DNA of 64,000 nt, from contig NC_089429.1 of NCBI RefSeq assembly GCF_026210795.1, positions 2,542,001 to 2,606,000 on the forward strand, in the 5' to 3' direction. The translations under genes were made by a program, and so were the position numbers. Below the pieces are notes generated by a model. The model saw only the letters and a program-made list of their open reading frames with translations. It had not been told where the DNA came from and ran no database searches. Below, one piece after another: positions 47,266 through 53,154 of this stretch (position 1 is its first letter; each line of letters begins with the position of its first letter). The stretch comes from Rhizophagus irregularis (lineage: Eukaryota).

Positions 47266-48713
47266 AACCCTTTCCCTATGAAAATTTTATCCGTTATTTC
47301 TGTAAAAACTCCATAAAAATGAGCCTTTCGCGGATCCATTCACGGAAAATGAAAATAATTCGATAAATTCCGTGATATAAGGCTATTAATTCCGGAAATG
47401 TGAGCCTTTTACGGAAAAAAGATGGAATATAAAAAACGGATCGACTTGGTTTTCATTTCACATAAATCATATGTCAATATATCAATCAATAACTAAAATT
47501 AAATGATTGAAATGAATTAGGATTAATGAACAAATGATCGGGAAAATCCTATGATCAGGTCGTTTTTGAACACTATACTATAGAATACTAGTAATCCATA
47601 AATTATTAGTCCGAAGTGTGACAAAGGATTATATATTTCTACATGCAATGTCCGGATGTCCGTCCGGCAAAGTGTCATTCTTGATATATAAAAATAAATA
47701 TAAATATGTGTCTATCAAAGAATCATTTGTTTTTATTTTTATTTTTACTTTAATATTACGACAAGAACAGAGTAGTGACAAAACAAAGATTGCTAACCTA
47801 AAAGGCGTAACCAGTCTTATCTAAATCTATAGTGGTGAATATTAAAACAAAAAATAAAACTATCTAAATTAAAAAAAAAGATGAAAAAAACTATAAGGAA
47901 ATAAATGATCATATTCTATAAAAAAGCACTTCTATGAGAAAAATGTGAAACATAAAAAAACCTAACCTCCCGCATGGAGGTAATTACTAGACATGTAAAT
48001 CAACCATCTACTAGCGTTAACGGTCGATTCGTGTCACATGATAACACATTCTATCAATAAACATGTGCCCGGCAGAGACCCGGATTTATTCCGATATCAA
48101 ATCGCAAATTTTTATCACGATAACGAAAAAAATTCCGATTTTATTCCGATAAAAAATTACCAATTATAGTAAGAAACATTTGATAATTCTAGCCGGCTTA
48201 CATCTTAATGCAGGCCAACTTTGACACGACAATAATTTTTAGTCAAAAACTGTATAGATATTACAAAATTGCAAAATCACATTTTTTAGTTAGACTTCTA
48301 TCACGATAGCATAGCGGACATGCTTATATCACCATGCCGATCATTTTGCTGATCATATATATTTTTCAAACTTCAATAAACAATATCTCGAAATTCAGTC
48401 ATCCAATTTTGATAAAGTTGTGCTCATTGGATTCGCCTCATCGAGACGAGTCAAATGGTGGTATTTTCATTAATTTTGGATCACTAGATGCCAAGATATT
48501 CACGGTTTTGTATTTCTATTATGAATTATCACATTATATAAAATCGGCCGATCTGGCTTGGCTACACCGATATACATTCGGCCGGGCTATAAAAATTGAT
48601 AAATTTAAGTTTTTTAACGATATAGAATAAAATAATAAACCTTTTTCATTACTAAAATTGATATTTATTAATTTTATATATAAATTTTTAGTATTTAATT
48701 AGGAAATTTACTA

Positions 48714-49047
48714 TTTTTAGACTTTAAAACTTTGTACAAAGCCACAGACTTTTAAGCCAACTCTGAAATTTTCATCATATATTTGTTAACCATTTAGAAA
48801 TATATGGTGAAAAAATGGCATCCTAATTCGCTTGAAACCAAAAGTTACCTATATACTATATTTAGTCAATTTTAATAAATTTGCAATTTTTAGACTTCAA
48901 AGTTTTGTACAAAGCCACAGACTTTTAAGCCAACTTTGAAATTTTCATTATATATTTGTTAACCATTTAGAAATATATGGTAAAAAAATGGCATCCTAAT
49001 TCGCTTGAAACCAAAACTTACTTATATGTTATATTTAGTCAATTTTA
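48714..49047 (+). repeat. Tandem duplication, ~173-bp period, upstream of the element's ORF
   Basis: TTTTAGACTT...TTTGTACAAAGCCACAGACTTTTAAGCCAACT...GGCATCCTAATTCGCTTGAAACCAAAA occurs twice. Confidence 0.92.
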
Positions 49048-49285
49048 AGTAATATATGATTATTTGATTTTAAAACTTTATATATTTTCTAAAATTTATT
49101 TTTGTTTACTATTTTAAAAATATAAGATAAAATTATTATTTTAAAAGTTTTCTATGTGTTATATTTAATCAGTTTTTTTATAAATAGACAAAAAAATTGC
49201 TTTAGCAAAATTAGAAAATCCAATCCAATTTAAAATAAAAAAACAATATTTTTTTAAATACTTTCATAATTTTTAATTATAAAAA

Positions 49286-52200
49286 ATGGATAACACTTCT
49301 ACTTTTTCAAATATTTGCAATTTTGATTCCATTGAATGTAATGGAAGAATAAAGCCAATCACTTATAACACTAAAATACCAAAATCTACTGAATTAATTA
49401 TTTCAGTTGGAATGTATTTATGCCAAATACATTACAATCAATTTATTTTAAATGAAACTAGAAATATTAATTATAATAAGAGTTGTGAGCATCCAAAACA
49501 TGATGAATATAAAAATCAATCAAAAAATACAAAAAAAAAATCAAGCAAACTTAATCTTAAAAAGGTTCCAAAAAGATTAATTGAAGTTTTAGAATTAAAT
49601 GAATCTTCAGAAATTTGTAGTATGTGTAGAAATAAAACTGATAAAGATTCTGAATATTTACAAAATGAAAAATACAAAGCACCTATTCCAATTAAAAAAA
49701 ACAATTTAAATGATAATGATAATTTACAAGATGAATCAATAGAAACTATACAAGATGAACTAATAGAGGCTATACAAGATGAATCAATAGAAGTTATACA
49801 AAATGAATCAATAGAAGTTATACAAAATGAATCAATAGAAACTAAACAAATAAAAACTTGTCAACATCCAAAACATGATGAATACTTAAATCAATCAAAA
49901 AATACAAGCAAACAATTTAGTCTTCAAAAAGTTCCAACAAGATTAATTAAAGTATTAGAATTAGATGAACTTGCAATGATTTGCAGTATGTGTAAAAAAA
50001 AAACTGATAAAGATTCTCAATATTTACAAACTGAAGAATATAAAGCACCAATTTCTAGAAAAAATAATAATGACAATATATCAAAAATAGGAAATCATAC
50101 TTATTTATTTAGAAAAGATATCTTATATACTGGAGAAGAATTACAACAATTTGAATCAGATTATCAAGAAATTATGACACAATTAAAAATTTCAAGTGAA
50201 ATTAAATTAAGTAGTAAAATAATAAAAATGTCTAATATTCTTTATAATAATCAACATAGATTAAATCTTAAACCTATTTATGATCCAATAGCTTTTAAAA
50301 CTATGTTAGAAACAGCTGATAAAGATTTAATTGGATTTTTTGATGAATTATATGCTGGAACTAATCCTAATACTAAATCTGAAACAACAAATAATAACAA
50401 CAAAAAAAAATTAGTTTCTTTATGTTATTTTTTAGCTAGCATTAATAATAAATATATTAATGGAATTAAAGTTGATATTGGATCATACTTGGAAACTTCT
50501 GGAGCTTCTTCTTCTTCTATTGATACATTGGCAAATATAGGAGTTTCAGTAACAAGAAAACAGTAAATCGTAAAAAAAATTTTATTTCAAATGAACACCA
50601 ACAAACTGTAGATAATTATTGTTTACAAAATATAGAAAATATGTTTATTCTTAATATAGATGATTACCATAATATTTCATAGGCGTAATCAACCAACATT
50701 GTTACAAACTCACAATATTTATCATTTTGTAACAATATTATTGAATACAAATACTAAAATTCCAAAAATACCATTTTATTCATTAAATAATTTTTCAATA
50801 CATAATCCTAAAGGAATTGATTCTGGATTAATTATTAATAACATTAAAAATAATTTTATGAATCAATTAGGTAAAAGTTATTATATGCAAAAAGAATTAT
50901 GGAAAAATTTTTTAATTGAAGATTCTTATGAAAATAGAGTTGAACTACTTAATATTCATAATTATGATGGTAGAATTCAAAATTACCATGAATTAAGATC
51001 AATGTCTAATAGCAAATTAGTAGACTTTATTTTGCATCCTTTACATAGTACTAAGGATTATATTGAATGTTTAGATTATGTATTTAAAGCATTTGAAAGA
51101 TTAGAAAATATTGAAGAAAATTATTTAAATAATTTTATCATTCCTGTAATTGCTGATTGGCCAGGACAAGTAAATATAAGAAGAGCTATAACACTTAGAA
51201 TTAAGAAAGGCATTAATTCTGGAGTTCCAGAGCAAGTGTTAAATTTAATTCCTATGATAGGTCCACTTCATGTCTCTTTAAACAGCAGAGAAATACTATT
51301 TCAAACATATCATTTCTTTTTTGAGATGCTATATCATAACTTATTTGGAGATAAAAAAATATTATCTCAAAAACCAAAACAAACAGTAATCAATCTTATT
51401 TTACATTTAACTTATCATGGATGGAAAAATATTCGTGATATTGTTACAAAAAGATTTGGAAATTTAAAAGATGCAGAATATCAAATGATGATAGATTTAT
51501 TAGATAATTCTATTCCACTTACTTTGGATATATATGCAATACTTTTTAGAAGTGGATTTTTTGAAGGATATTTAGAAAGTACTGTAAAAATTTGGATATT
51601 ATTTCAAAGATTGAGAAGACATAATTATAATAAAGCACCACTTATGTTTTTAAGTGATGTATTTTATTGGACTTCAAAAAATCATCCAATAATTAATATT
51701 TTAAAAAATAATTTACCAATTTTTAATGATTATTTTGTTGAAAATTTTCATAGCTCTTTAAGGCATCAAACAGCAGAATCAAATTCAGAGTTACAAATTA
51801 TACAAAAAGCAAAAATTATTGATGCTGAAAGAAATAATAATCCTTTTAAAAATTCTTTTATTAATTTGAGAAATCCAGCTAAGTCTCAAATTAAAGAATT
51901 AAAATCTTTAGAAAAAAAGGTTTCATTATTTTTATTCTCAATATTTGATAAGATTCATCAGAATATAGGAAATACAAAACAAATTAATAATGATAGATAT
52001 CCAAAATTTTATCTTCCAAGTTTTGATATTGAAGTGGATGTAAAGGTACTTCCTTTAGGCTGGAATACACAAAAAATACCAGCAGATGATAAATTTTGTG
52101 ATGCAAATAATTGTTTATTATCAAATAGTATAGATTTATCTAATGGAATTGTTTTACTTTGTGGACACAGTTTTCATAAAGAATGTTTAAGTACTTTATA

Positions 52201-52450
52201 TGATGATAAATGTAATTTTTGTTTTGATTATTTATCATCTGGAATTGAGAAAAATATTAAGAGTTTGGATCAAAGATTGTCGACATCATTAAAAGAAAAT
52301 GAAATCCCTTTATTTGAAAAGGAAAATAATAATGATGATGAAAATGATGAAGAAGAGAATATTGAAAACATATTAGAAAGAACAGAATGTGATGTAGAAA
52401 ATCAATATGATATAATGTATCAACAATGGTTAAATTATAATGATATATAA
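49286..52450 (+). CDS. Putative transposase (~1054 aa reconstructed): Cys/His knuckles, DDE-like core, C-terminal RING-H2; two compensating 1-bp indels
   Basis: ORFs 49286-50566 and 50660-52450 share a frame. Adding an A at 50557-50560 and removing a T at 50675-50677 gives TRKTVNRKK...FILNIDDYHNIHRR. Motifs NIDD, IADWPGQ, GPLH, VENFHS; RING-like CDANNC...CGHSFHKEC...CNFC. Confidence 0.75.
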
Positions 52451-53154
52451 TTAGTATTAATATAATAATTTTTATTAAATTGCAAAAGTCACTTTATTGA
52501 AATTTTTTAATAATAAAAATTAATATTTTATTTTGATTAATGAAAATTAATGAATTATAATTGTATAATTACTCCAACTAATAAGATAAATTATATAATA
52601 AAATAATTAGAAGATTCCGAATGCAAATATCTCAAGATATATAACTCCAAATTTTGTAAAATAAAGATGATCGGATTCATCAAGTCCTAAGCTTTCTAAC
52701 AAGCTAAAAATCATAAAATTCTGATCACTGGATGCTGAGATAACTGAGATTAACTTTAAAAAAAATCTAATATTAAATGTGATATGATAAAATAGTGATC
52801 AACAAATGATCGGCAAATGATCGGCAAAATTGTGATAAAATAGGGATGTCCGCTATGCTTATCACGATATAGTCAATAAAATATGCAATAATGATTGGCT
52901 AGTTGTCACGTGCCGGAATAAAATTGTTAAAAATCATAAAAATTCCGTTTTATTCCATAATACAGCAAAAATTCTGATTTATTCATTTATTATAAAAATG
53001 GAATTTTCCCGGGTCTCTGAGTCATGTGGATAGTTTTGCTTCGCACGTGACATTGTGCAACAAAAAAACTTTAAATTGCACTTCGGACTTAATAACGGTT
53101 TCCGTTTCCTAGTTATTTTAAAGGCGAAAAAAATTCTTTTCAAATGATCGACAT

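Follow-up and report, generated by a model that had tools for sequence, protein, structure and literature searches.

Academ is among the least studied superfamilies of DNA transposons. Its elements have 5'-TAG termini, and both named lineages carry an additional enzyme, a helicase in AcademH and a nuclease in AcademX, which has a single large open reading frame (ORF). AcademH was reportedly described by Kojima (2020, Mob DNA 11:15). The target site duplication (TSD) is 9 to 10 bp long in AcademH and 3 to 4 bp in AcademX, a difference that has been related to the helicase versus the nuclease and suggested to be explained by them (PMC10045372). Here we analyzed a stretch of 64,000 nucleotides of Rhizophagus irregularis (assembly GCF_026210795.1, contig NC_089429.1, positions 2,542,001 to 2,606,000 of the forward strand; hereafter, the window), in which an initial annotation had noted a complete transposon encoding a hard-to-classify protein. 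The element, at positions 48308 to 52859 of the window (4,552 bp), is a terminal inverted repeat (TIR) transposon with a 9-bp TSD and a single predicted DDE transposase. It likely represents, with a probability of roughly 0.72, a third, helicase- and nuclease-free lineage of Academ/DUF6589, or a close sister to it, marked by a C-terminal zinc finger with RING-H2 spacing.

Element ends, empty sites, and copies

As the initial annotation had described, the element is bounded by perfect 14-bp TIRs, AGCATAGCGGACAT at 48308 to 48321 on the forward strand and its exact reverse complement at 52846 to 52859, and flanked by exact 9-bp copies of TATCACGAT at 48299 to 48307 and 52860 to 52868 (both forward strand). 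This pair of a 14-bp TIR and a 9-bp TSD is unique in the window, and none was found in any of eight shuffled sequences. After the left TIR, an end common to relatives, come TATCAC and a pair of subterminal GATCAT repeats, up to about 48356, and three GATCAT or GATCAC repeats precede the right TIR; beyond the perfect 14 bp, the ends stay imperfectly similar to about 50 bp.

We compared contigs of four public runs (X1, X7, X9, and X13) with the element region. All four contained an empty-site joint from 48298 to 52860, which skips 4,561 bp, the length of the element plus 9. The target of insertion is a repeat of about 390 bp with outer limits at 48073 and 53019, and the depth of both flanks was much above that of DNA further out. 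Because the target site is itself a repeat, the empty sites may be paralogues of the repeat rather than alleles; in either case, they fix the TSD length at 9 bp. We did not accept a 10-bp TSD, which the 10 ambiguous letters at the joint would allow, as the terminal A/T is kept at both ends of 11/11 elements despite varying flanks. The target repeat itself (48073 to 48307 plus 52869 to 53019) has inverted 10-mers at its ends (48073 to 48082, CAGAGACCCG; 53010 to 53019, CGGGTCTCTG), with no clean TSD seen around it.

Element-internal contigs of runs X7, X9, and X13 differed from the window by at most one letter and two gaps, and their depth was 68 to 343, compared to 14 to 28 for flank contigs. 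This combination of high depth and near-identity points to several near-identical copies, with depth not to be equated with copy number. With its TIRs, TSD, empty sites, and multiple copies, the element is a TIR cut-and-paste DNA transposon. Depth at the element termini was several times that of the interior, and the joints 48462 to 52722 and 48617 to 52459 in runs X9 and X13 correspond to short derivatives in which the interior is deleted and the two ends are retained.

The transposase gene extends on the forward strand from an ATG at 49286 to a TAA at 52450. Its three frame pieces (424, 38, and 590 aa) are separated by 1-nt frameshifts near 50556 and 50675 that compensate each other; reading across them, with X at both breaks, gives the single long ORF reconstructed earlier, of 1,054 codons. 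The breaks lie within about 120 bp, on either side of the predicted first catalytic Asp, and a stop occurs at about 50564; therefore, the window copy as assembled is non-autonomous. Its earlier description as a complete cut-and-paste element is supported. Run X1, which is possibly the window's own sample, has both breaks, spanned by a contig without differences, and the frame is open in runs X7, X9, and X13.

A metagenome scan yielded 72 loci, with the left end in 18, the right end in 20, and both ends in 10. The ten two-ended loci are 3.6 to 5.0 kb long and have one long transposase ORF each (split by a stop in L038), a size and layout that leave no room for a helicase; indeed, no second ORF of at least 100 aa outside the transposase frame was found in the window element or in any of the ten. 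Their termini read ARCAKRG(C/T)GGAC, with one to four GATCAT-type subterminal repeats per end, and the TIR variants follow protein divergence across 65 to 89% identity. The check on further copies that had been proposed thus bore out the TIRs at all ten loci and the 9-bp TSD at one, L038, which is about 79% identical in DNA and is flanked by an independent exact duplication, AGAAGGTAT. The transposase ORF is under purifying selection, with a pooled ratio of nonsynonymous to synonymous substitution rates (Nei-Gojobori; 8 intact ORFs) of 0.28 in the core, 0.37 in the finger, and 0.50 in the N-terminus.

The predicted transposase and its probable kinship with Academ

The AlphaFold2 model of L001, an intact 1,053-aa relative, had a mean predicted local distance difference test score (pLDDT) of 79 and a predicted template modeling score of 0.68, and its RNase H core is interrupted by a helical insertion between the second Asp and the Glu. 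Residues ~394 to 863 of the model matched DDE transposases and integrases, which took all of ranks 1 to 31: Hermes (Z 10.3; root-mean-square deviation [rmsd] 6.3; 297 residues aligned), P (Z 9.8; rmsd 6.7; 359 aligned), and Tn5 (Z 9.8; rmsd 4.7; 221 aligned), followed at lower scores by ISCth4 (Z 8.0), Transib (6.8), and RAG1 (6.1). Hermes (hAT, 8edg), the P element (6p5a), ISCth4 (6xg8), Transib (6pqn), and RAG1 (6cij) are like the model in their RNase H DDE core and alpha-helical insertion, but differ from it at 8 to 13% identity and an rmsd of 5 to 7 Å. In a 128-row alignment (L001 numbering; rows with a residue at the position), D459 was conserved in 91/95, D625 in 99/101, and E820 in 106/108. 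As expected, the model places D459 on its first core strand, D625 where a later strand ends, and E820 on the helix that follows the long insertion. The corresponding motifs of the window copy, for which the initial annotation had named NIDD, IADWPG, GPLH, and VENFHS as candidate catalytic residues, are on the forward strand: NIDDYH at 50653 to 50670, in the short middle frame piece that the two breaks enclose; DWPG at 51155 to 51166, with D624 as the predicted second Asp; GPLH at 51260 to 51271, where the helical insertion starts; and DYFVE at 51728 to 51742, with E819 as the predicted Glu. With this predicted fold and conserved D/D/E, the window-family protein is predicted to be a DDE transposase, in keeping with the initial label "DDE-like." A viral fold library gave no match at E < 0.001, the best being a Pandoravirus hAT protein, and a PDB sequence search with the C-terminal ORF returned 0 matches.

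In the ESM Atlas, 28/30 named matches of the transposase core carried DUF6589 (score 0.95; 201 to 210 shared features), and DUF6589 ranked fifth in a further search. A sponge homolog, P0155, matched PF20231 over the DxP-GxxH stretch (E = 0.0016; 17.7 bits, with a Pfam cut-off of 27); at E < 0.1, 1/29 distant homologs matched this family, and every scanned protein remained below the Pfam cut-off. The Atlas similarity of 0.95 shows kinship with DUF6589, not membership. A search with the P0155 core for further DUF6589 members returned only P0155 itself and P0200, and one for longer homologous proteins, of 2,294 to 5,000 aa, found none.

We also compared the family with the Academ hidden Markov model (RNase_H_Academ.hmm, supplement of PMC5751038) at positions 1 to 40, 169 to 194, 220 to 245, 297 to 321, and 424 to 465 of 465. 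The consensus of the profile includes D3-N4-x-D6, H22, D191-q-P193, G220-x-f-H223, and D450-x3-E454 (PMC5751038), and the window family has D459-D460-x-H462, H480, D625-x-P627, G660-x-x-H663, and [DE]816-x3-E820. Four motifs (H, DxP, GxxH, and DxxxE) are therefore common to both, in the same order and at roughly the same spacing: 21 residues in the family versus 19 in the profile from the first Asp to the His, 166 versus 188 from the first to the second Asp, and 38 versus 32 from the second Asp to the His of GxxH. The initial annotation had found the protein impossible to place in one superfamily, a view that yields to this core resembling DUF6589 and sharing the Academ profile motifs; its suggestion of a possibly unclassified family stands insofar as none of the Pfam matches listed was a full-length one to a classified family.

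The single large ORF, the DxP after the second Asp, GxxH, and DxxxE are features shared with AcademX, from which the element differs by its 9-bp TSD (3 to 4 bp in AcademX) and by the absence of an XPG nuclease domain among the matches listed. The element termini are AGCATAG, AGCAGGG, or AACAGGG in 11/11 elements, none beginning with the 5'-TAG of Academ. AcademH (PMC10045372, PMC10799480) resembles the family in its TSD of 9 or 10 bp, its occurrence in fungi and animals, and its core motifs, those common to the family and the Academ profile; in contrast, it encodes a helicase, for which the 3.6- to 5.0-kb elements of the family have no gene, and the family has DDxH rather than DNxD as well as a C-terminal C3H2C3 finger. 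Thus, the element works like an Academ-type transposase, yet belongs to neither of the two named lineages.

Several points weigh against this placement. In the Pfam scans, neither DUF6589 nor any transposase family rose above the cut-off among the matches listed, and that DUF6589 is the AcademH transposase is an identity we presume. The Academ comparison was made by eye over about 140 of the 465 profile positions. The near-invariant D-N-x-D of Academ is replaced by D-D-x-H (D460 in 87/94 rows, N in 4/94; H462 in 77/95), and the distance from His to Glu is 157 residues in the family versus 231 in the profile, with an insertion about 70 residues shorter. The DDE assignment combines a predicted fold with conservation of the predicted catalytic residues, and Foldseek gave the same families at E values of 0.003 or weaker (all >0.001). 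For the finger modeled alone, fold searches gave weak matches, at best the Pirh2 RING in Foldseek (E = 2.6) and, by structure comparison, Rubicon (Z 3.6) and the RNF4 RING (Z 2.1). Finally, a TSD was seen at 1/10 two-ended loci: four had too little flank, and the flanks of five (L001, L027, L028, and L030, each with complete flanks at either end, and L032) were unmatched, probably owing to mixed copies in metagenome assemblies.

Of the alternatives, prior cataloguing of the family, as Academ or otherwise, in Repbase, Dfam, or a curated R. irregularis library is the one to be taken most seriously, although we consider it less likely than not. Transposable elements of R. irregularis have been curated, including families labeled Academ-1 (PMC11075540); Academ-labeled families appear without detail in libraries of arbuscular mycorrhizal fungi (PMC11075540, PMC11952901), and UniRef names proteins of this kind "RING-type domain-containing." On the other hand, the literature searched, which did not extend to Repbase, Dfam, or the AcademH paper, contained no report of an Academ lineage with a single ORF and a RING; excerpts of PMC10294476 and PMC10799480 contain nothing on RING-bearing elements, and that of PMC10045372 names only AcademH and AcademX. 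Such cataloguing can hold together with a third Academ lineage as regards mechanism.

It is improbable that the family is a separate, unnamed DDE superfamily that has no more than a remote common ancestor with Academ, comparable to that of hAT with P or MuDR. Its own first motif (DDxH), shorter insertion, and own termini (ARCAKRG), the lack of a helicase or XPG domain, an identity of ~20 to 30% spread over fungi, a nucleariid, and animals, and the absence of a Pfam transposase among the matches listed would fit such a superfamily; however, the four motifs match the Academ profile in order and in similar spacing, DUF6589 dominates the Atlas matches, and the 9-bp TSD falls inside the AcademH range (PMC10045372).

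A divergent Mutator (MuDR/IS256-like) element, to which the 9-bp TSD and the top Foldseek row, ISCth4 (E = 0.003), might point, is very improbable. MuDR, hAT, P, and Kolobok require a C/DxxH signature (PMC9587614), whereas the family has GxxH after the second Asp (G660 in 102/104 rows); no MULE match was among the Pfam matches listed, and Hermes, P, and Tn5 outscore ISCth4. Other superfamilies differ as well: Transib, RAG1, and CMC require C(2)C and H(3-4)H in the stretch from the second D to the E (PMC12730594), where the window protein has no Cys, and the TSD of Kolobok is TTAA, 4 bp (PMC9587614), compared to 9 bp in the window element and L038. Lastly, it is highly improbable that the ORF is a host RING gene carried as cargo, with the element itself non-autonomous and dependent on a different transposase: the frameshifted window copy and Pfam matches to RING families only are compatible with it, but the protein has the predicted RNase H core, with conserved D/D/E, that the initial annotation had asked for against this reading, homologs are bounded by the same TIRs, whose variants track protein divergence, and every two-ended element carries the ORF.

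If the family is a third Academ lineage, its N-terminal zinc fingers would bind the 14-bp TIR and the GATCAT repeats, D459, D624, and E819 would cleave the element ends and attach them to the target strands at a 9-nt stagger, with gap repair then yielding the TSD. Intact copies may also mobilize shorter derivatives and broken copies such as that in the window. A compact single-gene relative making 9-bp TSDs with neither a helicase nor a nuclease offers a direct test of the explanation of TSD length by these enzymes, and assays of Academ-type transposition would find their simplest system in the window family. Unclassified repeats make up two-thirds of R. irregularis transposable elements (PMC11075540); a multicopy family among them can now be named, which also explains many Glomeromycota proteins annotated as "RING-type domain-containing."

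The C-terminal zinc finger

The finger at 52097 to 52222 (forward strand) has the C3H2C3, RING-H2-spaced pattern C-x4-C...C-x-H-x2-H-x2-C...C-x2-C. Its eight ligands are 97 to 100% conserved, the first pair usually being C-x4-C and not C-x2-C, and the pattern was present in 60/66 aligned rows chosen for reaching the finger region. Homologs in other Glomeromycota, a nucleariid, a sponge, a brachiopod, and a hemichordate have the same finger. RAG1, in contrast, has its RING at the N-terminus. The ligand pattern of the RING-H2 finger reported initially is thus real and conserved, but a C-terminal cross-brace finger on a transposase has a precedent in piggyBac (PMC5861402). The cysteine-rich domain of piggyBac, a cross-brace zinc finger, likewise sits at the C-terminus of a DDE transposase; it differs in being PHD-like and binding end DNA (PMC5861402, PMC8086355), whereas the finger of the window family is RING-H2-spaced and on average acidic. 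The C-terminal finger of PiggyMac binds histone H3 (PMC8086355), and together these two fingers provide a precedent for a role other than that of a ligase.

Pfam matches of the window protein were to RING families only, all below cut-off, and the alignment profile gave only weak RING matches in PDB. A profile of 12 long homologs matched RING E3 ubiquitin ligases (Arkadia, E = 0.0016) and, equally, the VTD deubiquitinase 8adb (E = 0.0016). Canonical RING E3s have a Trp in the helix and a linchpin Arg after the last Cys. Among 60 fingers of the family, the Trp was found in none, and the linchpin position, mostly Phe or Leu, held R in 1, K in 3, and F in 29. Given these residues and the weak fold matches, the ubiquitin-ligase-like activity proposed in the initial annotation is unproven. 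The finger modeled alone reached a pLDDT of 87. On average it is acidic (2.7 K+R versus 4.4 D+E), which makes DNA binding less likely.

Six of the 14 long distant homologs examined have an extra domain behind the finger; its N-x-C and D-S-H motifs did not vary across 12 rows selected for the tail. The homologs with this VTD-type deubiquitinase-like tail are P0139, P0144, P0146, P0162 (Ptychodera flava), P0186, and P0243. VTDs have an Asp-x-His motif and are carried mainly by Helitrons, with cnidarian fusions to other transposon domains (PMC9741609). The tail, with its N-x-C and D-S-H motifs, resembles the VTD deubiquitinases of Helitrons and herpesviruses in matching 8adb; unlike in those systems, the domain is absent from the window protein and its fungal relatives.

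As for the role of the finger, we tentatively favor a ubiquitin-linked one, in which an atypical E3 or an E2- or ubiquitin-binding module would control transposase turnover; a structural or dimerizing role is a possibility to be held a little more loosely, and DNA or chromatin binding appears doubtful. In this way a DDE transposase may be tied to the handling of ubiquitin, a connection that can be put to the test. In its broadest and rather speculative form, the family might be a lineage or superfamily of single-gene DDE transposons that has so far gone undescribed, spans the opisthokonts, and was active recently in arbuscular mycorrhizal fungi. Its transposase would bring along a ubiquitin module, consisting of a RING E3 throughout and, in part of the animal members, a VTD-type deubiquitinase as well, and would thereby tune the ubiquitination of its own or host proteins; the family would also make 9-bp TSDs without the helicase thought to explain those of AcademH.

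Other features, distribution, and neighborhood

The protein motifs listed in the initial annotation were all present. On the forward strand, a putative N-terminal zinc finger, C-x6-C-x27-C-x2-H, lies at 49316 to 49435; it had been read as THAP-like, a reading not supported beyond this pattern, as no Pfam THAP match to the window protein or the family was among the matches listed (best 25 of 36 families). Weak Pfam matches to T7SS_EccB, HAD_2, and AAA were taken as noise. A first putative zinc knuckle, C-x-HPKH...C-x2-C, is at 49484 to 49627, and a second copy, offset by 366 bp, at 49859 to 49993; about five 24-bp coding repeats at 49725 to 49873 encode an acidic linker (pLDDT <50 in the L001 model). 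Most relatives are about 925 aa long with a single knuckle, the second knuckle and the acidic repeats being a subfamily-specific duplication. The 5' noncoding part of the element contains a 173-bp tandem duplication (48699 to 49044; 92% identity).

A search with the C-terminal ORF gave 283 proteins among 7,996 scored candidates; the best named matches were R. irregularis proteins with up to 99 to 100% identity, often labeled "RING-type domain-containing." A profile search of 1.84 billion representatives gave 2,293 proteins at E ≤ 0.001, of which the best 150 were examined. Named distant homologs, at 20 to 37% identity, came from Diversispora, Gigaspora, the nucleariid Pompholyxophrys, the sponge Oscarella, Lingula, Ptychodera (several paralogues), and Branchiostoma. 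A tree of 30 homologs, built without an Academ outgroup, has no bearing on Academ membership. One full-length member, P0032 (67% identical), is filed under a Bacteroidetes metagenome-assembled genome (MAG) on a 4.3-kb contig and is probably misbinned fungal DNA; a scan of prokaryote genomes for the TIR pattern gave three isolated single matches in MAG contigs, about the number expected by chance on a rough estimate. Loci L045 and L057 form a more distant subfamily (~40% identity) that ends in ...TCCACTATGCT, with a gene apparently split, possibly by introns.

The window also contains six paralogous, intron-free F-box-like ORFs of 540 to 610 aa (10006 to 11748, 17693 to 19327, 39947 to 41566, 42171 to 43889, 44917 to 46698, and 53248 to 55080), of which the last, the only one scanned against Pfam, matched PF12937 (E = 2e-5). 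The F-box cluster named as the site of insertion is thus a real neighborhood, but the element lies in the small high-depth repeat between two F-box ORFs and not in an F-box gene, and its location looks incidental. A 92-bp element at 53155 to 53246, with TIRs of at least 12 bp (TAGAGGTGCAAA), an 8-bp TSD (ATCGACAT), and an empty-site joint from 53146 to 53247 in 4/4 runs, looks like a hAT-type miniature element, and related pieces lie directly upstream of other F-box ORFs (44815 to 44904 and 39867 to 39910). At 34991 to 36872, two overlapping ORFs (269 and 388 aa) differ from the F-box genes in lying in DNA of higher GC content and are possibly part of another mobile element.

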